Shown: positions 5,193 to 33,256, counted from the stretch's first letter. The stretch: 64,000 nucleotides of DNA from Methylotenera sp. (GCA_017880905.1 JADGRO010000016.1:5363-69362); one strand, 5' to 3'. Notes: generated by a model not told the origin, from the letters alone. Numbers and translations: made by a program.

Positions 5193-5230
5193 TACTACCA
5201 ATTCCTTAAGGCTACATAACCTGCAGAAAC

Positions 5231-5252: not shown

Positions 5253-5266
5253 CGAATTATTCGCGC

Positions 5267-5275: not shown

Positions 5276-5500
5276 ATTAATTCAAGCAAAGAACACATTT
5301 ACGGTAGCTATGTGTTTGTTCAAGCCAAATTTGAGGAGTTACAAAATATTATATGTGCGCTCAACTAGCTTTCTTATTCATAATTTGCAAAGCCAATAGC
5401 CCAAAAGGGTCATAGATTTTCGCTTCATAATCGATAGAATGCTGATGGTAAGTCATAACTTTTTTCTTAAGCTATATTTTAAAGTGGGGTCACCGAATAA

Positions 5501-6526: not shown

Positions 6527-6541
6527 GAAAACGCTTTGATT

Positions 6542-6559
6542 TTAGCCGCATATGGCTAA
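6542..6559. terminator. Short hairpin between convergent SLT and tyrS genes
   Basis: TTAGCC-GCATAT-GGCTAA. Confidence 0.4.
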
Positions 6560-9110: not shown

Positions 9111-9174
9111 AGCCCCCTAAATAAGCGCGTATTTTTCGGCGTATAATCATAAATAAAGATTACAAAGAGCGATC

Positions 9175-15572: not shown

Positions 15573-15588
15573 TGGCACGCCAATTGCT
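15573..15588 (+). promoter_or_regulatory. sigma54 (-24/-12) promoter
   Basis: TGGCACGCCAATTGCT, GG-N10-GC, about 80 nt before the FimV-like ATG. Confidence 0.8.
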
Positions 15589-15669
15589 TAAATTGATTTA
15601 AGAAGCAATCTGAATAATAAACATTAAAAGTTGTACTTAATACTTATAATAGATAGATGGGTGAACGAT

Positions 15670-17514: not shown

Positions 17515-17519
17515 TGGGT

Positions 17520-18395: not shown

Positions 18396-18937
18396 TTTAA
18401 TAACTGCTCTAAATAAACTTCAGTAACTAATATCTTAGCGCAATCTAATTGAAACACCGAGCGGCGCGCCCATAATGTTTTTGGTTTATTTGACAGATGC
18501 TCTGCAACCCTTATAGATATTGGATGGTGGCGTGGTAGCTTTTTATAATCTAGTAGCGTGCGTATTACTTTAGGGTTAGCAAATAAAGCTGCACCAAGTG
18601 GTTTGTTGCCCAACTTACCCAAACCGCGCCAAGCCCCGCGCAAGCTGGCATGCGGCAACACACTATGCGCAAACACCACGGGTTGATTGTTGCCCATCAA
18701 TAACACCTCGCGAATCAGTGCATGCTGATTGACTTTCAAGCCAAGTAGCGCGGACTCATCTTGCAACGCTTTGGCATTTTTTAACAACACCGGCCGCACC
18801 GAAAAATCTGTGTAGCGCGCCTTTAACCGCGCAGTGAGTGAGCCAGTATCAATCAACCAAGGTTGCAACGCTTTGGCTAACATCGACTTTCTAAGCCATT
18901 GCTGACGCTGCTGAGAACGATTTTGTTGAATTTTCAC
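18392..18937 (-). CDS. ubiC: Chorismate pyruvate-lyase (start approximate, GTG at 18937)
   Basis: GSLTARL, REVLL, VFAHS, LGNKPLG..LF, WARRS.F, VTEVYL; upstream of ubiA. Confidence 0.9.
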   Translation of the reverse strand: MKIQQNRSQQRQQWLRKSMLAKALQPWLIDTGSLTARLKARYTDFSVRPVLLKNAKALQDESALLGLKVNQHALIREVLLMGNNQPVVFAHSVLPHASLRGAWRGLGKLGNKPLGAALFANPKVIRTLLDYKKLPRHHPISIRVAEHLSNKPKTLWARRSVFQLDCAKILVTEVYLEQLLK

Positions 18938-18968
18938 GGTTGAATATCGCACGCCCTGCTGTAACCAA

Positions 18969-20303
18969 TTAAGGTAGCTCTGCCTCAAAACTATATTGGC
19001 CGATAACTCTCCCTGGAAATTTCTTGCCTTGGTTATAGTCAACCCCAACAAAATCAACAAGCCCAACGTTTATTCGATCTTTGCCGATAGAAATATCAGA
19101 TATTTGATGCCCGTTAATTGGTAATTGCACAGACCATTTCTTTTTAAGCTGGGCATTTAGGCTATACTCTAAAACTTGCAACGAGTTATTATCCTCACCA
19201 AAATCAACAATTATTCGATCTGGCTGGCAATGCATTAAACTTATCCTCGTTGCACTAGCGCCTTGTAAAGGCAAATAAAAGGATCGTGTTTCCCCATTTG
19301 TACCTGCAATTAGCTCTACTCGCTCAGCGGCGCCTGCGCTTTTAAAAGTTCCTTCTGGTACTCCAGCTACTTTGACGAATTCAGCCTGATTTTCTTTTGC
19401 AAGCTGTGTAGTGAAGTGTCGCTTCACAACTTTGTCACAGTTGCCGAGGATTTTTGGAACAAGGTACATCTGCTTCAGTTCGTAGTCGCTCAGTTCAATT
19501 TTTTCATCACTTTCTTTCACTATGTTTGCTTGCACTTTCACTGCTTTCATCTCTACATACTCCCTGAGCGAACGCCTTTCGTCAGGATCAACTGGAGGGT
19601 TCAAGTAATAACAAGAACCTGCATCTGCAATATAAGGTAACTCCATATTTAACTTAGCACTTTCCTTAATGGTTTTCCCCGACCCATCTTCATTGATGTA
19701 TTGGTGCATTTGCCCGCTATTGTATAAATCCACGTCTAGGCTTTGCCTAATTTCAGGTGTTATTTTTTCGTTCATTTCATCATTATTCTGAAGCAGATTT
19801 ACACGCAAACTAGGTGGTGCCTGTTCATAGGGTACTTGCTTCCATATTTTGTTATCCAGTTTGAAAACTGCAAACCCTTCTCGTGGAAATCCATACTCAG
19901 AACATTTGGCACCTCGCACTGGTAAAACCACCCACGGCACATTATTAACCACATCAAATGTGACTGGAAATGTTTGATCCATCACGGGTATATTCGAGTT
20001 CTCGTAAGTCCAGGGAGGATAGTCTTCAGTATTCAAAGCTAATGAATATTTGCCTGTATACCAATATTTATTAGCGTGCACCGTAATCTGCTTCCCATCC
20101 GTAGTTTCAATCAATTGCTCTGTCACAAAGTGTTCGGGCACCACATATCGGTACAATGTAGAAATTACTGTGGCTGGGCTGACTGCAGAAAGCAGGCCAG
20201 CAAACATCGCTAACATAAGTAACATAACTACTATTGTAAGCAGTGTAATTACTAGCCACTTAATGAGGGTAATGAGCTGGGCAAAAATTGATTTATTTTT
20301 CAT
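18969..20303 (-). CDS. Hypothetical membrane-anchored periplasmic protein
   Basis: 444-aa ORF with an N-terminal hydrophobic anchor; no family recognised. Confidence 0.65.
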   Translation of the reverse strand: MKNKSIFAQLITLIKWLVITLLTIVVMLLMLAMFAGLLSAVSPATVISTLYRYVVPEHFVTEQLIETTDGKQITVHANKYWYTGKYSLALNTEDYPPWTYENSNIPVMDQTFPVTFDVVNNVPWVVLPVRGAKCSEYGFPREGFAVFKLDNKIWKQVPYEQAPPSLRVNLLQNNDEMNEKITPEIRQSLDVDLYNSGQMHQYINEDGSGKTIKESAKLNMELPYIADAGSCYYLNPPVDPDERRSLREYVEMKAVKVQANIVKESDEKIELSDYELKQMYLVPKILGNCDKVVKRHFTTQLAKENQAEFVKVAGVPEGTFKSAGAAERVELIAGTNGETRSFYLPLQGASATRISLMHCQPDRIIVDFGEDNNSLQVLEYSLNAQLKKKWSVQLPINGHQISDISIGKDRINVGLVDFVGVDYNQGKKFPGRVIGQYSFEAELP

Positions 20304-20331
20304 AATTTTTATAATTAGTTAGATATTCGCA

Positions 20332-22371
20332 TTATACCTTCACCAATTCACCCGCATGACTCATCCAACGTTCTAAATGTGCTTCTACAGCTTGCGGATA
20401 TTCCTTAATCAGCTTATCCGCCATGCTTTTGGCGCTTTCTAGTAAATCGGCATCGCGTTCTAAATCGGCAATTTTAAGCATGGGCACACCACTTTGGCGG
20501 GTGCCTAAATATTCACCCGGGCCGCGTAAATTTAAATCTGCTTGGGCGATGATAAAACCATCGTTATTTTCATAAATCACTTTTAACCGCGCGCGGGCTG
20601 TCTCACTAAGCTTATTTTGGTAGAGCAAAATGCAGGTGCTTTTTGCCGCTCCGCGCCCCACCCGGCCACGTAGCTGGTGCAACTGACTCAACCCCATACG
20701 TTCTGCGTGTTCAATTATCATTAAACTGGCATTTGGCACATCCACCCCCACTTCGATAACCGTAGTTGCTACAAGTAATTGAATTTCGCCAAATGTAAAA
20801 GCTTGCATCACAGCTTGTTTTTCTGCAGTTTTCATGCGGCCATGCACCAAGCCAATATTGAGCTCAGGGAACTCACTTTGCATATGCGCAAACGTGTCTT
20901 GCGCGGTTTGTAATTGTAGCGCCTCGCTTTCCTCAATCAACGGACACACCCAATAGGCCTGACTTCCAGCCATGCACGCTTCGCGTACGCGTTGCAAAAT
21001 TTCATCGCGCCGCTCATCCGAAACCAATTTGGTCATAACTGGCGTACGGTCAGGCGGCAGTTCATCTATCACCGAAACATCTAAATCGGCAAAATAACTC
21101 ATCGATAATGTGCGCGGAATCGGCGTGGCAGACATCATGAGCTGATGCGGTTCCGGTTCGCCTTTTTTGCGCAAAGCCAGCCGTTGCTGTACACCGAAGC
21201 GATGTTGCTCGTCGATAATGGCAAGGCCTAATTTGCTAAATTGTACTGATTCTTGAAATAAGGCATGCGTTCCAATAGCAAGCTGGGCGCGGCCGCTGGC
21301 GATGCCTTCTAATGCAGCTTCACGTTCTATTTTGCTTTGGCTGCCCGTGAGCCAAGCAATATTGATATCTAATGGTGCTAACCATTGGCTAAACTTTTTA
21401 TAATGTTGCTCCGCCAAAATTTCAGTCGGCGCCATCAGCGCCACTTGCCAGCCATGTTCTATTGCCTGCAACGCAGCCGTGCCAGCCACGATGGTTTTGC
21501 CGCTGCCGACATCGCCCTGCAACAAGCGCCGCATGGGGTGAGGCTGCATCAAATCGTGGCTGATTTCTGCCACTACTTTTTGTTGCGATTGCGTTAAAAT
21601 AAACGCCAAGTTTTTTAATAATTGCGGCGCTAATTTCTGCGATGCTGCAATGGCTGGCGCCTCCAAACTGCGCCGCTTAATGTAGTGCTTGCGCATCGAG
21701 AGTTGTTGCGACAATAGCTCGTCAAACGCCAAGCGGCGCCATTCTGGCATGGTTTTGTTTTCAAGCGTGCTTAAATTAGCGTCTGGCGGCGGATTGTGCA
21801 GCGCATGAATGCTTGTCGAAAAATTGGGTAAATTTAAGTTTTTATAAACGCATGCGGGCAAGGTTTCAGCCAGATCATTTTGACCAATGGCAAGTGCAAT
21901 TGCCTTGCGAATATTGGCTTGCGTGAGGCCTGAGGTAGTTGGGTAAACCGGCGTGAGCGTTTCAGCAACAATGGTCTGACTACCCACACTTTTGCACTGT
22001 GGGTGCACCATCTCATAGCCAAAAAAACCATGCCGCACTTCGCCATAAGCGCGAATGTACTTACCCACCGCTAGCGCCGCAACTTGGCTAGGATAAAAAT
22101 GTAAAAAACGCAAATTTATCTGCCCGCTGGCGTCTTCTAAGCGCACATGTAAGGCTTTACGAGGCTTATAGCTAACTTCGGCGTGCACAATTTCGCCTTC
22201 CATTTGCGCGGCATCGCCCAGCCGCAAATCACGAATTGCTGTGATGCGCGTTTCATCAATATAACGCAACGGTAAATGCAACAATAAGTCTTGAATAGTC
22301 GAAATGCCAAGCTTGTGCAAGTTGGTAATCAGTGGTTTGCTAAAACCTTTTATATCCGCAAGATTTGTCAT
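20332..22371 (-). CDS. recG: ATP-dependent DNA helicase RecG
   Basis: QGDVGSGKT, DEQH, MSATPIPR, HQLRGRVGRG motifs. Confidence 0.98.
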   Translation of the reverse strand: MTNLADIKGFSKPLITNLHKLGISTIQDLLLHLPLRYIDETRITAIRDLRLGDAAQMEGEIVHAEVSYKPRKALHVRLEDASGQINLRFLHFYPSQVAALAVGKYIRAYGEVRHGFFGYEMVHPQCKSVGSQTIVAETLTPVYPTTSGLTQANIRKAIALAIGQNDLAETLPACVYKNLNLPNFSTSIHALHNPPPDANLSTLENKTMPEWRRLAFDELLSQQLSMRKHYIKRRSLEAPAIAASQKLAPQLLKNLAFILTQSQQKVVAEISHDLMQPHPMRRLLQGDVGSGKTIVAGTAALQAIEHGWQVALMAPTEILAEQHYKKFSQWLAPLDINIAWLTGSQSKIEREAALEGIASGRAQLAIGTHALFQESVQFSKLGLAIIDEQHRFGVQQRLALRKKGEPEPHQLMMSATPIPRTLSMSYFADLDVSVIDELPPDRTPVMTKLVSDERRDEILQRVREACMAGSQAYWVCPLIEESEALQLQTAQDTFAHMQSEFPELNIGLVHGRMKTAEKQAVMQAFTFGEIQLLVATTVIEVGVDVPNASLMIIEHAERMGLSQLHQLRGRVGRGAAKSTCILLYQNKLSETARARLKVIYENNDGFIIAQADLNLRGPGEYLGTRQSGVPMLKIADLERDADLLESAKSMADKLIKEYPQAVEAHLERWMSHAGELVKV

Positions 22372-22374
22372 CGC

Positions 22375-22932
22375 TCAAATTGAATAGCTTTTCAGCCAAT
22401 CTAAAACTATAGCCGCGTGCTGATTGGGTGGAAACACGGGATAAAACACTTTTTTAATAATATTTTGCCCGGCAATCAAGGTGAGTCTTTTATACAAAGT
22501 AAGCTTGCCAACCTAAAAAGTAGGCAAATTTAAAGTTTGTTTTAACTTAAAATCAACATTACTCAACAAATCAAAGGGTAAATGTAAACGATTTTTAAGT
22601 TCTAGCTGATATTCGCTAGTTTGCGTGCTTAAGCCAAAAACGCGCATATTTAAACCCTGACACTGTTGATAATGCGCACTAAAATCGCAGGCTTGTGGCG
22701 TACAGCCACACGCGCCCGGAATCTCATCCCAGCCCTCCGTCAGAGCTAACTCAGGTTGACCGGTGAGTGGATAAATATAAATGACTATTTTTTCATGATT
22801 AAAACTGAAGTTTTGTCCGTTAGTAGAAAGCAATGAAACATCGGGTAAACGCATACCTACTAGGTGCGCGGCTTGCCCGTCATCCATCGGCACTGGCAAG
22901 CCTGCAGGTAATTGATTGAGGTTTTGATTCAC
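22375..22932 (-). pseudogene. Peroxiredoxin (BCP/AhpC-TSA-like) interrupted by an in-frame TAG at 22513-22515
   Basis: Frame continues past the stop as VGKLTLYKRLTLI...VFYPVFPP...WLKSYSI* to 22375; WDEIPGACGCTPQAC active-site region. Confidence 0.8.
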
Positions 22933-22979
22933 AGAACCAACTTAAAAGGTATTCTAAACTTAAAGATACTTAATAATGG

Positions 22980-25229
22980 TTATTGGATTTTTTCTTCATT
23001 GTGCAACCCCTTGACACGGTTAATGCGCACCACATCCGGTATTTTGCGTAAATTACGCATTAACTCGGCCAAATGCACACGATTGCGCACTTGCACAGTA
23101 AAATTGATATTAACGTAAGCGCTGCCATCGGGTTCTTCTACACTTACGTTATCAATATTAGAACCTACATCTGAGATGCCAGCAGCGATTTTGGCGAGCA
23201 TACCACGCTCATTTGCCACTACCACACACACATTCACCTTAAACAGTTTTTTGTCATCAGAATCCCACTCTACATCCAACCATTTATCAGGGTCAAGTTT
23301 AAATTTACGCGTGGTTGGGCAATCGTGTGTATGAATAATGAGGCCTTTTTCCTTGTTAATGAAGCCTAAAATTGGATCGCCCGGAATGGGTCTGCAACAT
23401 TGTGCAAACTGTACCGCCATGCCTTCCGAGCCGCTGATGGTGATACTATCAAGTTTTTTAGTGGGTTTTATTTTAGTGTTTTCAAGTACATGCAAATCGG
23501 GGTAACCAACGGTCAATTGGTGCGCTACCATCAAGCTAATGCGTTTGCCTAAACCAATGTCGGTCAAAATCTCCGACTTATCTTTAGCGCCATAATCACG
23601 CATCACTTTGCGCCATTGCGTATCTTGTACCGCGCTTGGCTCCACATGCAAAGCACGCAACGCCATATTAAGCATGCGCTCGCCTAGGTGGGCAGATTCT
23701 GTAGCTTGCAGCGTTTTTAAATAATGTCGAATATGTGAGCGCGCCTTGCCCGTGACTACATAATTCAACCAAGCAGGGTTTGGGTTGGCCAAGGGAGCTG
23801 TAATAATTTCTACATTATCGCCATTGTGCATCTCGCTACGCAGTGGCGCGAGGTCGTTATTGATTTTAACTGCCACGCAACTATTGCCCACATCGGTATG
23901 TACTGCGTAGGCGAAATCTACCGCGGTAGAACCTTTGGGAAGCGCTAATATATTACCTTTCGGCGTAAACACATACACTTCATCCGGAAATAAATCGACT
24001 TTAAAATTCTCTAAAAATTCGTAAGAATCATCACTTTCGGTTTGAATTTCCAGCAAACGTTGTAGCCATTGATGGGTTTGTTGCTGCAAGGCAGTCAAGC
24101 TGGCATCTGTGGTTTTGTACATCCAGTGCGCCGCCACGCCCGCATTGGCAATTTTATGCATTTCTTCACTGCGAATTTGCACCTCTATCGGCGTGCCGTA
24201 TGGGCCAAATAAGGTAGTATGCAACGATTGATAACCATTGGCTTTGGGGATGGCGACATAATCTTTAAACTTGCCCGGGATTGGCTTGTAGAGTGCATGC
24301 AAACAACCTAGCGTTAAATAACAAGTGGGCGTATCTTTAACCAAAATTCTAAAGCCATAAATATCGTGAATTTGCTCTAGCGCGGTGGCTTTATTCGCCA
24401 TTTTTCGGTACACACTGTACAAATGTTTTTCGCGGCCTTTAACATCAGCCTCAATATGCGCATCTGACAAACTTTGTTTAATCGACTCTAAAATCTTGCT
24501 AATTACCTCTTTGCGATTGCCGCGCGCCACCTTGATAGCCTTGGCAATCACACGATAACGCATCGGGTGTAAGTGTTTAAAACTCAAGTCTTCCAGCTCT
24601 TGATAGATAAGATTTAAGCCTAAGCGATTGGCAATCGGTGCGTAAATTTCCAGCGTTTCACGCGCGATGCGTTTTTGCTTTTGCGCGTTCATCGCGTCCA
24701 GCGTTTGCATGTTATGCAATCTATCGGCCAGCTTCACCAAAATCACGCGCACATCTTGACTCATCGCCAGCAGCATCTTGCGGAAATTTTCGGCCTGTGC
24801 AGCCGCAGCGCTTTGAAACTCGATTTTGTCGAGCTTGGTTAAACCTTCGACCAAATCGGCCACTTGCTTGCCAAATTTTTTGTTTATTTCCTTGATTGCA
24901 ACGCCAGTATCTTCCGCTACATCGTGCAACAGCGCGGCCAGCAAAGTAGGTAAATCTAAATGCAGCTTGGCCAATATACACGCCACCGCCACCGGGTGCG
25001 AAATATATGGATCACCCGTCATACGAGTTTGACCTTGATGCGCGGCAGCAGCATAGCGATATGCCGCCCACACCTGTTCGATGTCAGCTTGGCTAAAGTA
25101 TTCTTTAAGTAAAAGGGTGAGCTGTGAAGTTTCAGAATCTGCCGGCAATAAAAGCGGCTCGGCAGATTGAAAAGTGTCGATAGTGTGTTGGTTAATGCCT
25201 AATTTGGTTGCCGTTTTTGGCATTGCCAT
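22980..25229 (-). CDS. spoT: Bifunctional (p)ppGpp synthetase/hydrolase
   Basis: HD domain (PYISHP, LLHDVAED), synthetase (YQSLHT, EVQIR), TGS and ACT domains; after rpoZ. Confidence 0.96.
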   Translation of the reverse strand: MAMPKTATKLGINQHTIDTFQSAEPLLLPADSETSQLTLLLKEYFSQADIEQVWAAYRYAAAAHQGQTRMTGDPYISHPVAVACILAKLHLDLPTLLAALLHDVAEDTGVAIKEINKKFGKQVADLVEGLTKLDKIEFQSAAAAQAENFRKMLLAMSQDVRVILVKLADRLHNMQTLDAMNAQKQKRIARETLEIYAPIANRLGLNLIYQELEDLSFKHLHPMRYRVIAKAIKVARGNRKEVISKILESIKQSLSDAHIEADVKGREKHLYSVYRKMANKATALEQIHDIYGFRILVKDTPTCYLTLGCLHALYKPIPGKFKDYVAIPKANGYQSLHTTLFGPYGTPIEVQIRSEEMHKIANAGVAAHWMYKTTDASLTALQQQTHQWLQRLLEIQTESDDSYEFLENFKVDLFPDEVYVFTPKGNILALPKGSTAVDFAYAVHTDVGNSCVAVKINNDLAPLRSEMHNGDNVEIITAPLANPNPAWLNYVVTGKARSHIRHYLKTLQATESAHLGERMLNMALRALHVEPSAVQDTQWRKVMRDYGAKDKSEILTDIGLGKRISLMVAHQLTVGYPDLHVLENTKIKPTKKLDSITISGSEGMAVQFAQCCRPIPGDPILGFINKEKGLIIHTHDCPTTRKFKLDPDKWLDVEWDSDDKKLFKVNVCVVVANERGMLAKIAAGISDVGSNIDNVSVEEPDGSAYVNINFTVQVRNRVHLAELMRNLRKIPDVVRINRVKGLHNEEKIQ

Positions 25230-25256
25230 AACATGTTAAAAAGCTATACTGAATGC

Positions 25257-25469
25257 TTACGGATGAATGCGATTTAGAATTTCTAAACCCACTTTGCCCG
25301 CAGCAATCTCGCGCAAAGCCAGCACCGTTGGCTTATCTTTTTGATTTGGGCTATGCACAAACGGGTCAGAGCCATTGGCCAATTGGCGCGCACGGTAAGC
25401 TGCCACCAGTGTTAATTGAAAACGGTTTGGAATCTTATCTAAGCAATCATCTACTGTAATACGAGCCAT
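25257..25469 (-). CDS. rpoZ: RNA polymerase omega subunit
   Basis: [26 protein letters not shown]. Confidence 0.98.
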
Positions 25470-25482
25470 TTTATGCTCCTTT

Positions 25483-26097
25483 TTAAGTTAGTTTTTGAAT
25501 GAGGGTAGCGTAACGTTGCAACTGCGATTGCGATTTAAGTCTGGTTGCGCGAATAATCGCCATTAAATCTTGCAATGCCACATCAAATTTATCGTTGATT
25601 GTAACATAATCGAACTCCACCACATGACGCATTTCTTCGCGCGCCGCCGCAACGCGCTTGGCAATGACCTCAACGCTATCTTGGCCGCGATTATTCAAGC
25701 GCTCTTTCAATGTTTCTACCGAAGGCGGCAAAATAAAAATGCTCATTGCTTGCGGATAAATGTTGCGCACTTGCGCGGCGCCTTGCCAATCAATTTCTAA
25801 AATCACATCAAAACCAGCCTGCAAGGCAGTATCCACAGCGCTTTGCGAGGTGCCATATTTGGCGCCATGCACATTGGCGCTTTCTAAAAAGTCACCCGCG
25901 CTTAGAATTTCTAAAAATTGTGCCTCGGTTACAAAATGATAATGCACATCATTTTCTTCACCTAGCCGCAGTGGCCGCGTGGTATGCGAAACTGAGCGCT
26001 TAATCTGCGCATCGTTTACCAACAAAGCCTCTACCAAACTGGTTTTGCCTGCACCAGAAGCGGCGGTGATAATAAATAAATTACCGTTCACCATCAT
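25483..26097 (-). CDS. gmk: Guanylate kinase (likely start ATG 26097 or 26094, shorter than the track ORF)
   Basis: ASGAGKTS P-loop, SHTTR, YGTS, EIDWQGA. Confidence 0.96.
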
Positions 26098-26101
26098 CCT
26101 A

Positions 26102-26836
26102 TTAACACCAATCTGGACTGGGTAGCGCGGAAAATACTTCTTTAAGCCCCGCACCCCAGCCTTGACGCACCTTAGAGTAATACGGGTCGTTTTCACTAAT
26201 GCGTTGTTTGCAATCAGCATGCAAACTATCTACTCGATAAATCAATAAATCAATTGGGGCAGCTACCGATACGTTACTACGAATAGTAGAATCGAATGAA
26301 ATTAGCAAACATTTTACTGAATCCATGATGTCACTGTTGTATTTAACCACGCGATCGATAATAGGTTTGCCATATTTGGTTTCGCCAATTTGAAAATAAG
26401 GCGTTTCACTGCATGTTTCTATAAAATTACCTGCAGCATACACATTGAACAACCGCGGTTTTTCGCCTTTAATTTGGCCACCCACCAAAATACTCGCAGT
26501 GAAGTCAATGTCGTGATTTTTAAAATGCTCTCCATCACGCTCAAAAACTGCGCGCAATTCTGCTCCTACCAAACCCACCGCTTCGAATAAACTAGCCACA
26601 TTATGTAAGTGCTTACTATCTGCCTTACTATTTTCTATAGCAGCTCTCAAGTGATTGACTACAGATTGTGCAATCGCTAGATTGCCTGCCGTAAGTAATA
26701 CAATTACGCGCTCGTTTTTAACTTCAAAAATATGCATTTTGGGCGAAATGGCTACTTGATCAACCCCAGCATTTGTGCGGGTATCTGACGCAAAAACCAA
26801 GCCCTGTTCTAGTAATAAACCGACGCAATATGTCAT
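26102..26836 (-). CDS. Anbu / proteasome-type N-terminal-threonine peptidase
   Basis: M-TYCVG N-terminal Thr, SDTRTNAGVD, QIGETKYGKP; typical operon context. Confidence 0.88.
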   Translation of the reverse strand: MTYCVGLLLEQGLVFASDTRTNAGVDQVAISPKMHIFEVKNERVIVLLTAGNLAIAQSVVNHLRAAIENSKADSKHLHNVASLFEAVGLVGAELRAVFERDGEHFKNHDIDFTASILVGGQIKGEKPRLFNVYAAGNFIETCSETPYFQIGETKYGKPIIDRVVKYNSDIMDSVKCLLISFDSTIRSNVSVAAPIDLLIYRVDSLHADCKQRISENDPYYSKVRQGWGAGLKEVFSALPSPDWC

Positions 26837-26924
26837 GATAACGATGAAATTTTAAATAATCACAAAAGAATTATCATACCATTTTGCTCAAAAAAAATTT
26901 AATGCTAATTTAGCAGTAGAAGTT

Positions 26925-27764
26925 TTATTGTTGCGCCTGTTGTGCCTGCTTTAGCAGTTCAATTTGGTTCATTTTATGTTGCTGATTAATTGGCACGCCC
27001 ACTTGATTAACTACGACACTGGTAGCCATACCTTCTAGCCCACCACCAAAGCGCATACCGCTAATTGGGCTGGCTGTTCGGTAATCCAAGCCCGTAGCTA
27101 TTCGCACATAGGTTTCACCAACACGACAGCCATTAGATACATCAACACTTTGCCAAGCATTATCAAACCACACATCTACCCAGGCGTGGCTTTGCATGAG
27201 GCTACCATCTTGTGTAAATAAATAACCACTGACATAACGTGCTGGGTAACCTAAACTTCGGCAACAGGCAATCATGACATGAGCATGATCTTGGCACACA
27301 CCTTTACCTAACCTGAAAGCTTCTATTGCGGTAGTATCCACTTGAGTTGCACCTTTGATATAGCCCACTTTATCAAGTAGCGCATGCATTAAATCATCAA
27401 TTGACTTTTTTTGTTTAAACTCCTCTGCAAAGGTGATAATTGCTTCATCCGCCAATGTTAGGGGTGTATCGCGCAAATAAATCGTTAGTGGCAACGGTTG
27501 ATATTGTGAGTAATCGATGACGCCCGTTTCCACCTCACCTGCAACCGATATATTAAGTTCTATATGCGGGATATCGACCACTAGCGTGTGCATGCTATTG
27601 CCAAAGGCATCTTCAAAAGCGTGCAATTGACCTTGCACTTTAACCTCCCAATGTTTAACGTGCTGACCAAAGCCACTTTGTGGAGTTAGCCTAAGCTGTT
27701 GAATAGTGTAATGAACGGGACTACTGTAGACGTATTGGGTATGGTGTTCTATGTTAAGGCGCAT
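26925..27764 (-). CDS. Transglutaminase-like protein
   Basis: GVCQDHAH (Cys), SHAW (His), DVSN (Asp) triad; N-terminal H.T.Y.Y pattern. Confidence 0.9.
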   Translation of the reverse strand: MRLNIEHHTQYVYSSPVHYTIQQLRLTPQSGFGQHVKHWEVKVQGQLHAFEDAFGNSMHTLVVDIPHIELNISVAGEVETGVIDYSQYQPLPLTIYLRDTPLTLADEAIITFAEEFKQKKSIDDLMHALLDKVGYIKGATQVDTTAIEAFRLGKGVCQDHAHVMIACCRSLGYPARYVSGYLFTQDGSLMQSHAWVDVWFDNAWQSVDVSNGCRVGETYVRIATGLDYRTASPISGMRFGGGLEGMATSVVVNQVGVPINQQHKMNQIELLKQAQQAQQ

Positions 27765-27777
27765 TATTCATTACTCG

Positions 27778-28728
27778 TTACTGACTGGCAGTTACGCTTA
27801 AAAATGCACGCTGAATTTCAGCACCCAAATAATTATTTGCATCAATAAAATCACTTAAAAATTCATGCAAGCCCTGTTGAAATATATCTTGCATTTTGCC
27901 AAACCGTAGTTTGGCGTGTAACTCGCCCGCTAATCGCTTGCACTCGATTTGGCGCAACCCCGATAACTGCTCCAATATAGGCGTGACTTCGTCTAAACAC
28001 GCATGCAAGGAGCGTGGCATATCGCGCCTTAACACCAGCAACTCTGCCACTCGCCATGGCGCGATGGTGTCGCTGAATATTTTTTGATAGGCTTGAAAAG
28101 CTGATACCGAACGCAAAACTGCGCTCCATTCATAATAATCCACCGCCCCACCCACTTCTTCTTGTGACGGTAATAACAAATGATACTTTACATCTAGTAA
28201 ACGCGCCGTGTTGTCAGCACGTTCAATAAACGTGCCCAACCTTACAAAACTAAATGCGTCATCGCGTAACATGGTGCCAAAACACACTCCACGAAATAAA
28301 TGCGAACGCGCTTTTACCCAATCACAGAATTCAGTTAGACCATGTTTAGCAAGGTCTTGTCCGATAAATTGACTAAATTCCAGCCAAAGCGCATTGATGT
28401 TCTCCCAAGTTTCAGAAGTCATCGCCACACGCACAGCACGAGCATTCTCACGTGCACTTCGCAAGGTATTATAGATACTGGATGGATTATCAATATCCAT
28501 CGCTAGATAGTGAATCACTCCGGCGGCAGAATAATCGTCGTGCTCATGATCATAGGCTTCGACATTACCTGATATTTCTAGTGCAGGTAGCCATAGCGCA
28601 GCCTCGCTCACGGCAGCATTTGGCACTAGCGACATGTTATAAGTCACATCCAGTACACGCGCCATATTCTCTGCGCGCTCAATATAGCGCGCCATCCAAT
28701 AGAGGTGATCTGCGGTTCTACTTAACAT
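27778..28728 (-). CDS. Alpha-E domain protein (DUF403-type)
   Basis: MLSRTAD.LYWMARYIERAEN..R and second FIERADNTAR ER motif. Confidence 0.9.
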   Translation of the reverse strand: MLSRTADHLYWMARYIERAENMARVLDVTYNMSLVPNAAVSEAALWLPALEISGNVEAYDHEHDDYSAAGVIHYLAMDIDNPSSIYNTLRSARENARAVRVAMTSETWENINALWLEFSQFIGQDLAKHGLTEFCDWVKARSHLFRGVCFGTMLRDDAFSFVRLGTFIERADNTARLLDVKYHLLLPSQEEVGGAVDYYEWSAVLRSVSAFQAYQKIFSDTIAPWRVAELLVLRRDMPRSLHACLDEVTPILEQLSGLRQIECKRLAGELHAKLRFGKMQDIFQQGLHEFLSDFIDANNYLGAEIQRAFLSVTASQ

Positions 28729-30212
28729 ACGGACTCAACTTTGCTGTTTTTTGCTTTTGCCGTAATTGTCACTGGTTCATCTTCCAATAAATCATTTTCT
28801 AATATCCAAGTATCTTTGGTACCACCGCCTTGTGATGAATTCACCACCAGCGAGCCTTCTTTTAAAGCAACGCGACATAGCGCGCCTGGCACTAGGGTGA
28901 CTGTTTTACCTGAAAGCACAAATGGACGTAAATCCACGTGACGCGGTGCGATACCCTTTTCAACCAAAGTTGGACAGGTGGAAAGTGCTAATGTGGGCTG
29001 TGCAATGTAATTAGCGGGCTTGGATAGCATACGCAGTTTAAACTCTTCTATCTCTTTTTTGCTGGCCGCAGGGCCAACCAGCATGCCATAACCACCAGAA
29101 CCTTGTACCTCTTTCACCACTAACTTATGCAAATGCGCCAGCACATATTTCAGATCTTCTTCCTTTCTTAACTCATAAGTCGGTACGTTTTCTAAAATAG
29201 GCTCTTCACCTAAATAGAACTTGATCATGTTTGGCACATGAATGTACGTGGCTTTATCATCGGCAACACCCGTGCCCACTGCATTGGCTAGTGTCACACC
29301 ACCGTTTCGATACACCGAAAGCAACCCCGGCACACCTAACATTGAATCTTGGTTAAATACCAGCGGGTCTAAATAATCGTCATCAATCCGTCTATAAATT
29401 ACATCAACACGCTGCGGACCTTGCGTGGTACGCATAAATACTGCGTTATTGCGCACAAACAGATCTTGACCTTCAACCAGTTCAATGCCCATTTGCTGTG
29501 CTAAAAAAGCGTGCTCAAAATATGCACTGTTGTATGCGCCTGAAGATAACACCACCACAGTTGGGTCTTGCACGCCAACTTGCGCTACAGCACGCAGATT
29601 TTTCAATAACACTTGCGGGTAGTGGTCCACAGGTGCCACAGAATAACGGCGAAATAATTCAGGAAAAAGTCGCATCATCATTTTGCGGTCTTCTAACATA
29701 TAAGAGACGCCCGATGGCGTACGCAAATTGTCTTCCAACACATAAAATTGCGATTCGCTGGTGCGCACTAAATCAATGCCCGCAATGTGCGCATAAACTT
29801 GGTTTGGCACATCAACGCCAAACATTTCCGGGCGATATTGGCTGTTAGCCAAAATGCTAGATGGCACAATGCCTGCCTTGATAATTTCTTGGTTGTGGTA
29901 AATATCGTGCAAAAACATATTCAAGGTACATACACGCTGGACAGCACCTGCAGAGAGATGTGTCCATTCTTTAGCTGAAATCAAACGCGGAATAACATCA
30001 AAAGGGATTAATCGTTCAGCGCCATCTGCCTCGCCGTATACATTAAAAGTAATCCCCACACGACGAAATAGCAGCTCAGCCTCTTGGCGTTTACTTTCTA
30101 ATTGGTGATGCGGCACATCTTTTAACCAATGTTGATAAGCCACATAAATTTCGCGCACGCTAGCAGAATCTAGCTGCATCTCATCAAAAAATTGGGCGGC
30201 GAATTTTTGCAT
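28722..30212 (-). CDS. Circularly permuted type 2 ATP-grasp protein
   Basis: VLEDNLRTPSGVSY, DVIYRRIDD, ANAVGTGVADDK, VNSSQGGGTKDTW. Confidence 0.9.
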   Translation of the reverse strand: MQKFAAQFFDEMQLDSASVREIYVAYQHWLKDVPHHQLESKRQEAELLFRRVGITFNVYGEADGAERLIPFDVIPRLISAKEWTHLSAGAVQRVCTLNMFLHDIYHNQEIIKAGIVPSSILANSQYRPEMFGVDVPNQVYAHIAGIDLVRTSESQFYVLEDNLRTPSGVSYMLEDRKMMMRLFPELFRRYSVAPVDHYPQVLLKNLRAVAQVGVQDPTVVVLSSGAYNSAYFEHAFLAQQMGIELVEGQDLFVRNNAVFMRTTQGPQRVDVIYRRIDDDYLDPLVFNQDSMLGVPGLLSVYRNGGVTLANAVGTGVADDKATYIHVPNMIKFYLGEEPILENVPTYELRKEEDLKYVLAHLHKLVVKEVQGSGGYGMLVGPAASKKEIEEFKLRMLSKPANYIAQPTLALSTCPTLVEKGIAPRHVDLRPFVLSGKTVTLVPGALCRVALKEGSLVVNSSQGGGTKDTWILENDLLEDEPVTITAKAKNSKVESVC

Positions 30213-30244
30213 ACTTTAAAATCTTTTTTATGTAAAAAGACTTT

Positions 30245-30260
30245 AGCAAAACGCATACCA
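30245..30260 (-). promoter_or_regulatory. sigma54 promoter of the ATP-grasp/Anbu operon
   Basis: TGGTATGCGTTTTGCT (GG-N10-GC) on the minus strand, 32 nt before the ATG. Confidence 0.8.
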
Positions 30261-30277
30261 ATATTTTAGTTATTAAA

Positions 30278-30290
30278 AATCAAATAGTTA
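30278..30290 (+). promoter_or_regulatory. IHF consensus site
   Basis: AATCAAATAGTTA fits WATCAANNNNTTR; lies between the sigma54 site and the enhancer-like sites. Confidence 0.65.
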
Positions 30291-30321
30291 CAATAAAAAA
30301 ATAGATTTGTAGTTGTTTACG

Positions 30322-30369
30322 CGCACTAAGACAGTGCATTAATAATTATTAATAGTACATGCTGCACCA
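30322..30369. promoter_or_regulatory. NtrC-like enhancer sites
   Basis: CGCACTAAGACAGTGCA (30322-30338) resembles TGCACCA-N3-TGGTGCA; second half-site TGCACCA at 30363-30369. Confidence 0.6.
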
Positions 30370-30396: not shown

Positions 30397-31263
30397 TTAT
30401 TCGATATTTTGAATCTGCTCGCGCATTTGTTCGATTAACACTTTAAGCTCCATCGAAATTTGGCTGGTTTCAATTGTCACCGATTTTGAGCCCAGTGTAT
30501 TCGCTTCGCGATTCATTTCTTGCATTAAAAAATCTAAGCGCTTACCCACTGAACCACCACCATTCAGAATACGTTTTACTTCGTTAATGTGCGTATTTAA
30601 ACGTGATAATTCTTCATCTACATCAATGCGCTGTGCAAACAGCACGATTTCCTGGCGAACGCGCTCGTCATCTCCACTCGCATTGGCTTCGTTTAGTTTG
30701 GCAGTAAGCTTTTCCTGATATTGCTTAATTAAAGCAGGCATCATCGGTTTCACTTTTGTAACTTGTTGCTCAATCTCTTGCAAACGTACCAAAATAATGG
30801 CTTTTAGCTTTTCGCCTTCACGCGCTTTTGCCTCAATTAAATCTTGCAATACTTGATTCAAACTTGTTTTTAAATCATTTTCCAGCGCATCCGTATTTAA
30901 AGCTTCTGTCGCCATCACACCTGGCATTTGTAGTATCTCAAGCATATTGACGGGTTGTGTATGTGGAAAATACTGCGCGGCAACTTTTGCGCTTTCGGCA
31001 ATTTGCTGCAAAACCGTATGATTAAGCTGCGGTGCGCTATCCGCATCAGCACTATGCACCAAACTCAAGCGACAATCGACCTTGCCACGCCCTAGTTTAG
31101 CCTGAATAAGCTCGCGCACGGCGGCTTCAAAACCGCGCAAATTATCATCTAATTTGAGTTGTAACTCTAGGTAACGATGGTTCACCGAGCGCAATTCAAT
31201 CAACAAAATTCCATTCATAGTGTTGCGTTCTTGCGACGCATAGCCTGTCATACTTAGTATCAT
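30397..31263 (-). CDS. yicC: YicC/YloC family endoribonuclease
   Basis: SMTGY, RSVNHRYL, RGKVDC, GKRLDFLMQEMNREANTLGSK. Confidence 0.95.
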   Translation of the reverse strand: MILSMTGYASQERNTMNGILLIELRSVNHRYLELQLKLDDNLRGFEAAVRELIQAKLGRGKVDCRLSLVHSADADSAPQLNHTVLQQIAESAKVAAQYFPHTQPVNMLEILQMPGVMATEALNTDALENDLKTSLNQVLQDLIEAKAREGEKLKAIILVRLQEIEQQVTKVKPMMPALIKQYQEKLTAKLNEANASGDDERVRQEIVLFAQRIDVDEELSRLNTHINEVKRILNGGGSVGKRLDFLMQEMNREANTLGSKSVTIETSQISMELKVLIEQMREQIQNIE

Positions 31264-31369: not shown

Positions 31370-32311
31370 ATGGCTACCACTAAAAATCAACCATTGCCTA
31401 TCGGCTATTTGCTACAAGACTACATCATCACCAAAGTCTTGAGCTCTGGCGGCTTTAGTTTTGTCTATCTTGCACAAGATATGAACAAAAATATCGTTGC
31501 CATTAAAGAATATATGCCAACAGGCTTAGCCTTGCGCGAAGAAGGTGCCACCGTGCTGCTGGGCACGGATGATGACGCTGCCACTTTTAAGCATGGCCTT
31601 AAATGTTTTTTTGAAGAAGGTTTGGCGCTAGCGAAAATTGATCACAGAAATATCGTGCGCGTGATTAATTTTTTTAGAGAAAATAACACCGTTTATATGG
31701 TGATGCAGTACGAGCGCGGCAAATCGCTGCAAGATTACATACTCTCACAACCCGAGCCGGTAAATGAAAAATTTGTGCGACGTGTATTTGGCGAACTTTT
31801 AAACGGCTTACGCGAAGTACACACACAAAAATTGCTGCATTTGGATATTAAGCCCGCCAATATTTATATTCGGTTAGACGGTTCGCCCGTATTGCTGGAT
31901 TTTGGTTCTGCAAGACAAACGCTTACCCAAGTGCAATCTAAATTATCTCCAAGCTACACGCCTGGTTTTGCACCTCCTGAACAATATTTTGAGCGCAAGC
32001 AACTAGGGCCTTGGAGCGATATTTATAGTGTTGGCGCGAGCATGTATTCTTGTTTAGTGCGGTCTGCGCCTATCGCTGCAAATCTGCGCGTAAAAGAAGA
32101 TACTTTGTCGCCTGCTGTTAAAACTGGCAAAGGTATTTATACCAAAGAACTGCTGGCAATTATTGATTGTTGTTTAAAAATTGATTATTTAGAAAGACCG
32201 CAGAGCGTGTTTTCACTGCAAAAAACTCTGCTTGAAAACGTGCCGCCGTTAATCCCTAAAAAACCAAGTTTAGTGAATAAAATTAAGCATGTTTTAAATA
32301 AACCGCTATAA
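31370..32311 (+). CDS. Hanks-type Ser/Thr protein kinase
   Basis: SSGGFSFVY, VAIKEY, HLDIKPANI, DFG, GFAPPE, SDIYS. Confidence 0.93.
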   Translation: MATTKNQPLPIGYLLQDYIITKVLSSGGFSFVYLAQDMNKNIVAIKEYMPTGLALREEGATVLLGTDDDAATFKHGLKCFFEEGLALAKIDHRNIVRVINFFRENNTVYMVMQYERGKSLQDYILSQPEPVNEKFVRRVFGELLNGLREVHTQKLLHLDIKPANIYIRLDGSPVLLDFGSARQTLTQVQSKLSPSYTPGFAPPEQYFERKQLGPWSDIYSVGASMYSCLVRSAPIAANLRVKEDTLSPAVKTGKGIYTKELLAIIDCCLKIDYLERPQSVFSLQKTLLENVPPLIPKKPSLVNKIKHVLNKPL

Positions 32312-32326
32312 CCGTAAATTTACTAG

Positions 32327-33256
32327 ATGAAATTCACTATTTATCAAAATAGTCGCCAAGGGCCAAGACCATATAACCAAGACAGATTGGCTTATTCTTA
32401 CAGCAAAGATGCTTTATTGCTAGTATTGGCGGATGGCATGGGCGGCCACCGTAATGGTGAAATTGCTGCGCAATTGGCGGTTAAAACACTTACCGATGCG
32501 TTTCAGCGCTTAGCTGTGCCAGCACTTAGCAGCCCAGCAAAATTTTTAATCGAACATATTCAGCAAGTACACGATATGATTGAAAACGTAACGCAAAGCG
32601 AAGAATTCGTCGAATCTCCGCGCACTACCATCGTTGCAGCCATTATCCAGCGCAGTTATCTATATTGTGCGCACGTCGGTGATTCGCGCCTGTATCATTT
32701 CCGTAATGGGCACTTGCTATTTCGTACCGAAGATCATTCCGTCGTGCAATCGCTGTATAAAAAAGGCATGATTTCTCTTGAAGAAATGGCGACCCACCCA
32801 TACAAAAATAAAATTTACAATTGTGTGGGGGGAGAAGCGCCGCCACAAATAGACCTATCTGATAGACATGAGCTCAGTGAAGGCGATACTGTTTTACTAT
32901 GTACAGATGGTGTTTGGGGCGTGATTAACGATCAACAAATCAAAGAAATTGTTCAACGAAATACGGATATTACCCAAGCTGTTACAGAGCTCATGGATAG
33001 CTCAGAATTTGCCAGTGATGATAAGGGTGACAATATGAGCGCTATTGGTTTGCAATGGGGCGACAGGCCAGAAAGTCATAGCGCAGTTTCTACACTGCTT
33101 ATGCCTTTGGGTGAGACCACTACCATCATTAACACCGTCACCCGCCAAATGGTTGATGGGAGCTCTCCATACGAACTTTCAGACGATGATATTGAAAATA
33201 CTATTGCCGAAATACAAAATGCTTTAATTAAAACACAGCAAAAACCTAGGATTTAA
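32327..33256 (+). CDS. PP2C/PPM-family Ser/Thr phosphatase
   Basis: NQD, LADGMGGH, HVGDSR, LCTDG, DN motifs. Confidence 0.93.
   Translation: MKFTIYQNSRQGPRPYNQDRLAYSYSKDALLLVLADGMGGHRNGEIAAQLAVKTLTDAFQRLAVPALSSPAKFLIEHIQQVHDMIENVTQSEEFVESPRTTIVAAIIQRSYLYCAHVGDSRLYHFRNGHLLFRTEDHSVVQSLYKKGMISLEEMATHPYKNKIYNCVGGEAPPQIDLSDRHELSEGDTVLLCTDGVWGVINDQQIKEIVQRNTDITQAVTELMDSSEFASDDKGDNMSAIGLQWGDRPESHSAVSTLLMPLGETTTIINTVTRQMVDGSSPYELSDDDIENTIAEIQNALIKTQQKPRI

Follow-up and report, generated by a model that had tools for sequence, protein, structure and literature searches.

Does an Anbu module with a nitrogen-type promoter, placed directly in front of gmk, rpoZ and spoT, bring these three genes under nitrogen control? 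The question is raised by a 64,000-nt stretch of Methylotenera sp. DNA (the window), for which an earlier note had proposed that NtrC-dependent read-through from the module raises Gmk, omega and SpoT together. If this proposal were true, the locus would represent an independently evolved link from nitrogen to ppGpp. Gene identities were established by Pfam, NCBIfam and PDB searches, which confirmed a four-gene module between yicC and gmk. Eight genes lie in the following order on the minus strand, all of them co-oriented:

30397..31263, minus strand, yicC (YicC/YloC endoribonuclease; PF03755 and PF08340; TIGR00255, E 8e-84)
28722..30212, minus strand, CP-ATP-grasp gene (circularly permuted ATP-grasp, amidoligase; PF14403, E 6e-162; PF04174)
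27778..28728, minus strand, Alpha-E domain gene (PF04168, E 1e-101)
26925..27764, minus strand, transglutaminase-like gene (PF08379 and PF01841)
26102..26836, minus strand, Anbu (proteasome beta-subunit homologue; PF00227 and PDB Anbu matches)
25483..26097, minus strand, gmk (guanylate kinase; TIGR03263, E 8e-68)
25257..25469, minus strand, rpoZ (RNA polymerase omega; TIGR00690)
22980..25229, minus strand, spoT (bifunctional (p)ppGpp synthetase/hydrolase; HD, RelA_SpoT, TGS and ACT domains in Pfam)

The last 7 nt of the ATP-grasp gene also belong to the Alpha-E gene, and rpoZ has a strong AGGAG ribosome-binding site of its own. The spoT product scored 896.5 bits against NF008303 (E 1e-269), slightly below the model cutoff of 947 bits, and 790.4 against TIGR00691 (spoT_relA), above the cutoff of 499.2. 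The best PDB matches of the Anbu protein were the Anbu structures 5LOY, 5NYW and 5LOX (E 1e-83 to 1e-67); together with 5NYJ and 5NYF they matched over the full length at E 2.5e-83 to 2.6e-62. It has the proteasome beta fold, is closest to these solved structures and starts with MTYCVG, so that the Thr nucleophile directly follows Met1; T2, D18 and K33 are invariant in the alignment (A2). The co-oriented CP-ATP-grasp, Alpha-E and transglutaminase-like genes directly upstream agree in content and order with Anbu operons as defined previously (Valas and Bourne, 2008; Iyer et al., 2009), and the same order of the four genes was found in most of ∼65 unrelated metagenome loci.

The position of the module departs from the usual gene order. 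The earlier note had regarded yicC and gmk as normal neighbours, and in 39 of the 80 gmk loci surveyed in betaproteobacteria yicC was indeed found upstream at a distance of under 200 nt, the gap from the yicC stop to the gmk start often being 2–15 nt. By gene order, gmk ancestrally lay next to and downstream of yicC, and the module represents a lineage-specific insertion at the yicC-gmk junction. Such an insertion into the yicC-gmk-rpoZ-spoT string of a Methylophilaceae ancestor would have created a composite of two transcription units. At the new junction 4 nt separate the Anbu TAA (26104-26102) from the gmk ATG, the distance given in the earlier note; alternative in-frame gmk starts 3 and 6 nt later are possible and would widen the gap to 7–10 nt. 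In Methylophilus loci the two genes share an ATGA in which the stop codon of Anbu and the start codon of gmk overlap. Judged by this spacing, Anbu and gmk are packed closely enough for co-transcription. The linkage of the two genes is limited to Methylophilaceae and appears to be unreported.

Four elements were located upstream of the CP-ATP-grasp gene:

30245..30260, minus strand, sigma-54 promoter TGGTATGCGTTTTGCT (P1), an exact match to TGGYAY-N5-TTGCW with -24 GG and -12 GC
30278..30290, minus strand, IHF-like box TAACTATTTGATT, fitting the reverse complement of WATCAANNNNTTR (YAA-N4-TTGATW), between the dyad and the -24 element
30322..30338, minus strand, NtrC-like dyad TGCACTGTCTTAGTGCG, a proposed upstream activator site matching 9 of 12 positions of TGCACC-N5-GGTGCA
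30363..30369, minus strand, distal NtrC-like half-site TGGTGCA, read from the sequence (matching the full dyad at 6 of 12 positions, weak alone)

P1 has the GG and GC elements at the fixed spacing shortly upstream of a gene: it ends 33 nt before the CP-ATP-grasp ATG (at 30212), and from the spacing of the -12 element its start site is predicted near 30235. All 17 loci of a first set (the window and 16 genome loci) and all six Methylophilaceae-type metagenome loci have a strict sigma-54 motif 31–49 nt ahead of the CP-ATP-grasp start, i.e., 23 of 23 readable Methylophilaceae loci including the window. The dyad begins 78 nt upstream of the -24 element and is the only TGCAC-N7-GTGC in the window. 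Equivalent dyads, matching 9–11 of the 12 consensus positions, lie 75–79 nt upstream of the sigma-54 motif in 21 of 23 loci (15 of the 17 genome loci and all six from Methylophilaceae metagenomes); the background rate of such a dyad, irrespective of position, is 0.10 per 170 nt. Ten of the 17 loci have the IHF-like box at -29 or -30. Taken singly, the promoter motifs are not rare (0.79 and 0.92 expected in 64 kb); they are more than chance matches because relatives keep them at matching positions. The composite of sigma-54 motif and dyad occurred 22 times in 1.94 Mb of fetched DNA, 21 times ahead of CP-ATP-grasp genes. By its conserved sequence, then, the module carries a genuine enhancer-type sigma-54 promoter with NtrC-like sites. 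The arrangement is of the glnAp2 type, with a dyad ∼70–150 bp upstream and an IHF-like box in between, the second site in the window being only a half-site; second NtrC-like sites occur at variable positions in three relatives (L002, L012, L035). Of the full enhancer-dependent promoter described in the earlier note, the sigma-54, IHF and proximal NtrC-like elements were recovered, and the distal NtrC-like site was reduced to a half-site. The motif points to NtrC as the probable activator of P1; none of ntrBC, rpoN, glnA or another nitrogen-regulated promoter was found within the 64-kb window.

Whether P1 also governs gmk and spoT depends on the 88-nt spacer between the transglutaminase gene and Anbu (26837-26924), in which two features were noted:

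26890..26915, minus strand, weak hairpin UGCUA-AAU-UAGCA followed by UUAAAUUUUUUUU (centroid fold -3.3 kcal/mol)
26873..26885, minus strand, AAAATGGTATGAT (P2), a conserved block with an extended -10 element (TG-n-TATGAT), proposed housekeeping promoter

The whole spacer folds no better than shuffled sequences (z = +1.59), the terminator scan did not call the hairpin, and an Rfam search gave no RNA family at the spacer. The hairpin is at best a leaky terminator, and a convincing terminator is absent from the spacer. The P2 core TGGTATGAT (TGnTATGAT) is located at 26881-26873, its hexamer ending 36 nt before the Anbu ATG, a short-leader distance, with TG one base upstream of the TATAAT-like hexamer as in extended -10 sigma-70 promoters. 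P2 was the sole invariant block upstream of Anbu in a 20-locus alignment (mean identity 38%). Its 13-mer was found in 12 loci, a single time per locus and only at the P2 position, and TGnTAT[GC]AT was present in 27 of 29 Anbu-gmk loci, starting 36–47 nt before the Anbu ATG. The earlier note had mentioned the hairpin and a -10-like element, TGGTATGATAAT, as a caveat; both are present, and the latter turned out to be the best-conserved non-coding feature of the locus. We infer that P2 is the working promoter of Anbu-gmk-rpoZ-spoT; it could instead be a regulator site.

A synteny survey, suggested in the earlier note, indicated that P2 is kept whatever lies upstream. What fills the slot ahead of P2 varies among relatives: the gene there can be transglutaminase itself, an opposite-strand TonB receptor, a DUF2721 gene or an unknown gene of 400 aa. 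The link from P1 to gmk is physically broken in four loci. In L011 the opposite-strand TonB receptor lies between transglutaminase and P2; in L021 and L031 the partner genes lie in divergent orientation, with a fused CP-ATP-grasp/Alpha-E variant and no sigma-54 motif in the intergenic region; and in L015 three opposite-strand genes are followed by P2 and then directly by gmk. P2 is likewise retained directly before gmk after loss of Anbu or of the module in the deletion remnants L006 and L009.

Transcription was assessed from Logan contigs of public metatranscriptomes that derive from M. versatilis 7 (L008) and a Methylophilus strain (L035). All RNA evidence comes from these orthologous loci (∼67–85% protein identity for these genes), contig depth is a contig-wide mean, and the contigs may contain DNA. 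In L008, contig breaks or starts fall at 5753-5783, on the sigma-54 motif (5739-5754) or no more than ∼30 nt after it, and depth relative to yicC rises 3–10-fold at P1. In the Methylophilus strain the CP-ATP-grasp gene was 25-fold (X36) and 9–80-fold (X32) deeper than yicC. Depth over the Alpha-E and transglutaminase genes was mostly 6–48 in six L008 runs (X17, X18, X19, X20, X21, X23; lower in the sparse X23), and depth over Anbu and gmk in the same runs was 0–6, except for one Anbu 5' bin of 14 (X19). In contigs of both relatives, the upstream module genes were often 3–20-fold deeper than Anbu-gmk. On the question whether the four module genes form one unit, contigs crossed the spacer in some cases and were interrupted there in others. 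Contigs from the upstream genes stop at 9099-9190, close to the transglutaminase stop codon and short of P2 (L008 X13, X17, X18, X20, X23), and Anbu contigs start at 9236-9301 (L008 X16, X17, X20). In L035 the depth climbs from 40 (transglutaminase) to 64–190 (Anbu-gmk) in X36, and drops from ∼6800 to 345 ahead of the transglutaminase gene in X32. All junctions were spanned by contigs in L008 X7-X10, X12, X14 and X15; in X14 a single contig of depth 97, against 10.7 for yicC (∼9-fold), runs from ∼30 nt after P1 to the end of spoT. Spanning contigs of this type fit substantial read-through and overlapping transcripts equally well.

Read-through in quantity, by which NtrC/sigma-54 would co-induce Anbu, Gmk, omega and SpoT with P2 giving basal expression only, gains from these spanning contigs, from the lack of a credible terminator between transglutaminase and Anbu, and from the 4-nt Anbu-gmk gap within a run of co-oriented genes from yicC to spoT. 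In Pseudomonas putida the induction of Anbu (PP_2685) on nitrate vs. ammonium matched that of PP_2688, and NtrC activates relA in E. coli (Brown et al., 2014, as cited in a P. putida study). However, another P. putida study recorded 1.1–4.8-fold for PP_2685 against 11–37-fold for PP_2686-2688, and the depth of Anbu, gmk and spoT does not track that of the P1-driven genes in eight runs (six L008, two L035). The architecture of L011, L021, L031 and L015 precludes read-through, yet Anbu-gmk or gmk keeps P2 there. We regard this reading as unlikely. A separate conserved promoter appears to serve Anbu-gmk-rpoZ-spoT, and therefore wiring of nitrogen to ppGpp by read-through is possible and unlikely to be the main design; the conserved P2, the broken loci and the 3–20-fold drop in RNA all speak against the main mechanism put forward in the earlier note.

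Two further readings deny P2 or the gene order its role. TGnTATGAT may be an operator or part of a leader, with Anbu-gmk-rpoZ-spoT transcribed from yicC, P1 or intragenic promoters. P2 has no recognisable -35 element, the generic promoter scan left it unranked and merely listed an overlapping 9-of-12 match, and in L008 X11 the Anbu-spoT contig begins inside the transglutaminase gene (8385). This explanation is nevertheless quite improbable: the position and sequence of the element are those required of an extended -10 promoter, the spacer shows neither an RNA family nor unusual folding, and gmk, presumably essential, must be expressed in L015 and L011, where no same-strand gene lies upstream. 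The juxtaposition could also be a chance landing devoid of regulatory meaning, the downstream genes having their own promoters inside Anbu and gmk. The gmk 3' end and rpoZ (depth 8–60) exceed gmk (0–6) in L008 X17, X18, X20 and X21, which suggests an extra start inside gmk, and 50–90 nt with hairpins separate Anbu from gmk in L013, L014 and L016. Against this very improbable reading, Anbu and gmk have stayed side by side in 21 genome loci and 8 metagenome loci, the rearranged L021 and L031 among them, the two genes overlap in Methylophilus, and P2 persists before gmk after Anbu has been lost.

The locus thus probably consists of two transcription units, P1-driven module genes and P2-driven Anbu-gmk-rpoZ-spoT. 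The first would comprise the CP-ATP-grasp, Alpha-E and transglutaminase genes, with P1 assisted by an IHF-like site for bending and by NtrC-type activator sites, one or two in number; from the make-up of P1 it is most likely induced by nitrogen limitation, as is the orthologous P. putida operon. The second, Anbu, gmk, rpoZ and spoT, would be driven from the 88-nt spacer by P2 as an extended -10 sigma-70 promoter, supplying gmk (presumed essential), rpoZ and spoT independently of nitrogen once the insertion had separated them from yicC. Since the spacer, with only a feeble hairpin and U-run, lacks a convincing terminator, some P1 transcripts probably continue into the second unit. This spill-over looks minor and apparently not what selection preserved.

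The second unit resembles the E. coli spo operon (gmk-rpoZ-spoT-trmH-recG): the window has gmk-rpoZ-spoT and, somewhat further on, recG (20332-22371). A peroxiredoxin-like ORF occupies the place of trmH. The window differs from the spo operon in having Anbu as the first gene of the unit, and from the widespread yicC/yloC-gmk-rpoZ linkage, in which the gene upstream of gmk in betaproteobacteria is usually yicC. The module itself matches PP_2688-PP_2685 of P. putida KT2440 (CP-ATP-grasp, Alpha-E, transglutaminase, Anbu) in identical order. Expression of that operon is raised by nitrogen limitation or on poor nitrogen sources, and the operon was assigned to the NtrB/NtrC regulon; control of Anbu operons by nitrogen and NtrC has been published for P. 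putida and is not new. In one data set the response of Anbu there is weaker than that of the three genes preceding it; a separate conserved promoter before Anbu is not known to have been described for P. putida, and unlike the module in the window, the operon does not adjoin gmk-rpoZ-spoT. In Burkholderia cenocepacia H111 the transglutaminase-domain cluster I35_5080-83 is sigma-54- and NtrC-dependent under nitrogen limitation; it has a 'large protein' architecture, resembling the fused CP-ATP-grasp/Alpha-E variant of L021 and L031 (those with no intergenic sigma-54 motif), and Anbu is unmentioned in that paper. The likeness to E. coli relA, activated by NtrC/sigma-54 according to Brown et al. 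(2014, as cited in a P. putida study), is conceptual, in that nitrogen starvation is linked to (p)ppGpp via NtrC. The E. coli promoter acts directly on the synthetase gene relA, whereas P1 is separated from spoT by ∼5 kb, five genes and the conserved P2, and the target in the window would be the bifunctional SpoT instead of RelA.

The genes of the locus were assigned by strong matches in Pfam and NCBIfam; for Anbu, the Pfam/NCBIfam assignment was accompanied by end-to-end alignment to solved Anbu structures (E 1e-83 to 1e-62). In reading order they are:

30397-31263, reverse strand: yicC
28722-30212, reverse strand: circularly permuted ATP-grasp (CP-ATP-grasp) gene
27778-28728, reverse strand: Alpha-E gene
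26925-27764, reverse strand: transglutaminase-like gene
26102-26836, reverse strand: Anbu
25483-26097, reverse strand: gmk
25257-25469, reverse strand: rpoZ
22980-25229, reverse strand: spoT

The Anbu stop codon is followed after 4 nt by the ATG of gmk, and 88 nt separate the transglutaminase gene from Anbu. The gene order, the promoter elements before the ATP-grasp gene and the 4-nt gap were thus confirmed as the earlier note had described them. spoT is followed by a peroxiredoxin-like ORF and then by recG. Divergent from yicC, genes for a Ser/Thr protein kinase and a PP2C phosphatase occupy 31370-33256 (forward strand), with rph, rdgB and hemW after them; dnaA, dnaN and gyrB at 55981-61358 indicate that the replication origin is near the window. 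Two ORFs of 444 and 439 aa were noted at 18969-20303 and 36126-37445 (both reverse strand), respectively. The former had no match in Pfam or NCBIfam, and the latter had none in NCBIfam, the only collection searched for it. An exact-sequence look-up with the window Anbu matched no contig, and the runs containing the window sequence were DNA metagenomes only (permafrost, soil, river).

In 39 of 80 betaproteobacterial gmk loci surveyed for synteny, yicC precedes gmk by <200 nt, often by just 2-15 nt. Anbu was directly upstream of gmk in 21 of the 80, all Methylophilaceae. These counts bear out the proposal that the module of CP-ATP-grasp, Alpha-E, transglutaminase and Anbu genes was inserted before gmk-rpoZ-spoT. 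The closest gmk loci mark the organism as a Methylotenera (Methylophilaceae, Betaproteobacteria); the closest relative by Gmk (L001, 90% Gmk identity) is without the module. A gap of 200-1000 nt was present in four loci, including two deletion remnants of the module: L006 (9570-10000) has the 3' end of a 400-aa gene, the 13-mer of the putative promoter before Anbu (P2) and an Anbu with an internal deletion, and L009 (9232-10000) has Anbu fragments (residues 125-177 and 212-244). These remnants indicate that the module was lost repeatedly while the promoter was kept. When metagenomes were scanned with an Anbu alignment, Anbu-gmk was found only in eight loci, of Methylophilaceae type; in the ∼65 other Anbu loci, the fetched flank (≤6 kb) contained neither gmk nor rpoZ nor a spoT in the same orientation. 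One of these other loci, L097, has an opposite-strand spoT-like match (32% identical) upstream. A mobile-element origin of the module was considered and rejected, as GC content is flat across it and there are no flanking direct or inverted repeats.

The promoter before the ATP-grasp gene (P1) consists of the following elements:

30260-30245, reverse strand: sigma-54 -24/-12 element TGGTATGCGTTTTGCT, exact consensus
30290-30278, reverse strand: IHF-like box TAACTATTTGATT
30338-30322, reverse strand: NtrC-like dyad TGCACTGTCTTAGTGCG, 9/12 positions
30369-30363, reverse strand: NtrC-like half-site, TGGTGCA

All four were found where the earlier note had placed them, the distal one as no more than a half-site. 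Any of the motifs taken singly would turn up by chance about once per 64 kb. In 16/16 genome loci with yicC and the module, a strict sigma-54 motif precedes the start codon by 31-49 nt, and the motif is also present in 6/6 Methylophilaceae-type metagenome loci. The NtrC-like dyad was located 75-79 nt upstream of the sigma-54 motif in 21 of 23 loci (the window counted), and the IHF-like box at -29 or -30 in 10 of 17. In the 1.94 Mb of fetched DNA, the composite of motif and dyad is essentially restricted to CP-ATP-grasp genes (21 of 22 occurrences). Because of this comparison with relatives we accept the sigma-54 promoter as real; the dyad motif suggests NtrC as its activator. The same dyad was sought at other nitrogen genes, and the 30 window genes scanned (of ∼56 ORFs) included no nitrogen-assimilation or ntr gene. 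A second exact sigma-54 motif of the window, TGGCACGCCAATTGCT (15573-15588, forward strand), is intergenic and upstream of a FimV-like gene (ORF 15631-17514, PF25800). It has no NtrC-spaced dyad; a GCACC-N8-GGTG dyad lies ∼115 nt upstream, a spacing unlike that of NtrC. This site may serve a different enhancer-binding protein, perhaps a pilus-related one.

When 20 loci were aligned over the 130 nt preceding Anbu, mean identity was 38% and there was a single invariant island, TG-n-TAT-g/c-AT:

26885-26873, reverse strand: P2 island, window form AAAATGGTATGAT

TGnTAT[GC]AT was present in 27 of the 29 Anbu-gmk loci, starting 36-47 nt before the Anbu ATG, and the remaining two carry CGCTATGAT instead. 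In form and geometry, the island corresponds to an extended -10 sigma-70 promoter. The earlier note had mentioned this -10-like element as a caveat; it proved to be a conserved island and the decisive feature of the locus. The island is kept whatever gene precedes Anbu:

Transglutaminase gene: the window, M. versatilis 7 (L008), Methylophilus
Conserved 400-aa gene of unknown family: L002, L003, L007, L012, L013, L016
DUF2721 gene: L020, L028, L029, L033
Opposite-strand TonB-dependent receptor gene: L011
Divergent pair of fused ATP-grasp/Alpha-E and transglutaminase genes, no sigma-54 motif: L021, L031

The island has also survived the loss of Anbu, being retained next to the Anbu fragments of L006 and L009. 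In L015, yicC and gmk are separated by three opposite-strand genes and the P2 13-mer is found 82 nt before gmk. Since gmk is presumably essential, and neither L015 nor L011 has a same-strand gene upstream of the gmk unit, P2 is the best promoter candidate for gmk-rpoZ-spoT.

Several of these loci have unusual gene content. The ∼400-aa conserved gene lies on the same strand between the transglutaminase gene and Anbu in many Methylotenera loci (L002 7703-8905; also L003, L004, L007, L012, L013, L016, L083-L085, L087). It matched no Pfam family and no PDB entry, and could be an accessory of the Anbu module that has gone unrecognised. In the subclade of L020, L028, L029 and L033, the same place is taken by a 150-aa DUF2721 membrane protein (e.g., L028 8730-9182). 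L021, L031 (e.g., L031 2367-6813) and L094 carry a second type of Anbu, with 59% identity to that of the window. Its partners are a divergent gene in which CP-ATP-grasp and Alpha-E are fused (860 aa) and a transglutaminase gene; the shared intergenic region has no sigma-54 motif. This type is directly before gmk in L021 and L031, and not in L094. Between yicC and gmk, next to TraX and GGDEF-EAL genes, L015 encodes a 483-aa protein (5215-6666, reverse strand) with a ubiquitin-family domain (PF00240, E 1e-15) and an autotransporter beta-domain, an odd combination for a bacterium.

The spacer between the transglutaminase gene and Anbu contains a hairpin at 26915-26903 (5-bp stem, 3-nt loop) followed by UUAAAUUUUUUUU. 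The spacer folds at -7.6 kcal/mol, worse than shuffled sequences (z = +1.59), and the weak hairpin was therefore rejected as a real terminator. In this spacer no terminator was called by the generic promoter and terminator scan, whose sites were no more numerous than in shuffled sequence. The spacer is not explained by a riboswitch or leader, as an Rfam search of the whole window detected no RNA family.

RNA from relatives was taken from public synthetic-community and sediment metatranscriptomes, for M. versatilis 7 (L008, with the gene arrangement of the window) and a strain near Methylophilus sp. 42 (L035). The evidence consists of assembled contigs whose depth is a contig-wide mean and in which DNA contamination is possible; such depth is too coarse for quantifying read-through and was used only as a pattern recurring across runs. 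At P1, the breaks or starts of L008 contigs fall at 5753-5783, which is at the sigma-54 motif (5739-5754) or ≤∼30 nt past it, and depth steps up there. In six lower-coverage L008 runs (X17-X21, X23), depth over Alpha-E and transglutaminase was mostly 6-48 (lower in the sparse X23), and that over Anbu and gmk was 0-6, except for one Anbu 5' bin at 14 (X19). Upstream contigs stop at 9099-9190 in X13, X17, X18, X20 and X23, and Anbu contigs start at 9236-9301 in X16, X17 and X20; transglutaminase has its stop at 9170, and P2 occupies 9191-9199. In the L035 run X36, depth fell from 1255 over ATP-grasp to 40 over transglutaminase, then rose up to 64-190 over Anbu and gmk, and this rise after a trough calls for a second promoter. 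In X32, ATP-grasp and Alpha-E reached ∼6800 or more vs. 345 for the transglutaminase-to-spoT contig.

Three further RNA features were recorded inside genes. Within the 3' end of the L008 CP-ATP-grasp gene, contigs start at exactly 7247 in X13, X18 and X21, at 7258 in X20 and at 7235 in X23; those of X18 and X21 carry sequencing adapter. Depth over Alpha-E and transglutaminase far exceeds that over the ATP-grasp gene in these runs, a pattern suggestive of processing or of a start within the gene. A separate contig at L008 10435-10986 (gmk 3' end to rpoZ) has 5-10x the gmk depth in X17 and X18 (31.5-60 vs. 4.8-6.1), and an rpoZ-region contig stands at 8-16 in X20 and X21, where gmk is ∼0, suggesting an extra promoter inside gmk or a stable rpoZ fragment. 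In X32, short contigs at L035 6496-6743, inside the CP-ATP-grasp gene, reached 16000-25000, with the remainder of the gene at ∼6800 and the region downstream at 345; these contigs may be an artefact or stem from an RNA segment of very high abundance or stability.

The anatomy of the locus across relatives and the RNA patterns seen there point to two transcription units, in which P1 would drive the ATP-grasp, Alpha-E and transglutaminase genes and P2 would drive Anbu, gmk, rpoZ and spoT. The earlier note had proposed that NtrC-dependent read-through raises Gmk, omega and SpoT together. The insertion before gmk-rpoZ-spoT stands and nitrogen-type control of the module is very likely; read-through as the main design is not supported, given the conservation of P2 and the RNA patterns. 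Deep runs do have contigs across every junction, and in X14 a single contig extends from just past P1 to the end of spoT (depth 97 vs. 10.7 for yicC); read-through or overlapping transcripts could equally fit such contigs. Leakage through the spacer hairpin may be heavy, and some P1 transcripts therefore probably continue into Anbu-gmk in the window genome. A nitrogen input to SpoT by this route nevertheless appears unlikely to us. Were P1 spill-over substantial, the locus would provide a second case of (p)ppGpp control fed by nitrogen stress, an outcome that the evidence makes less likely.

The two-unit arrangement implies that regulation of Anbu can be separate from that of its partners, the ligase and transglutaminase genes being behind a nitrogen-type promoter and Anbu behind a housekeeping one. 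Anbu is predicted to be co-expressed in Methylophilaceae with guanylate kinase, RNA polymerase omega and SpoT. The Anbu-gmk link persists where the partners are swapped, inverted or separated. It is a long shot that selection, not accident, keeps Anbu first in the gmk-rpoZ-spoT operon, that the protease works with the stringent-response and GTP-homeostasis machinery, and that leaky P1 read-through adds a real nitrogen input to SpoT/Gmk levels in window-type genomes. A selected link would offer the first physiological handle on Anbu function and, together with read-through, a second, independently evolved nitrogen-to-ppGpp connection. The locus is carried by the culturable Methylotenera versatilis 7 and Methylophilus sp. 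42, and its natural variants (module present, absent or deletion remnant) form a ready comparative system.

For Anbu, a widespread relative of the proteasome, no physiological role has been established. In the literature, we found no description of Anbu heading gmk-rpoZ-spoT, and a targeted search for an Anbu-spoT link was uninformative; Anbu freed from its partners' promoter and made the first gene of a stringent-response operon in one family is apparently new. Nitrogen control of an Anbu operon is already known: P. putida PP_2685-2688 is induced on nitrogen limitation, attributed to NtrB/NtrC, and in B. cenocepacia a related transglutaminase cluster belongs to the NtrC/sigma-54 regulon. The sigma-54 motif was absent from 22 of 35 distant Anbu modules sampled in metagenomes, and sigma-54 control therefore appears to be lineage-specific. 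The window module is very likely nitrogen-controlled and as such one more case of this known type of regulation.
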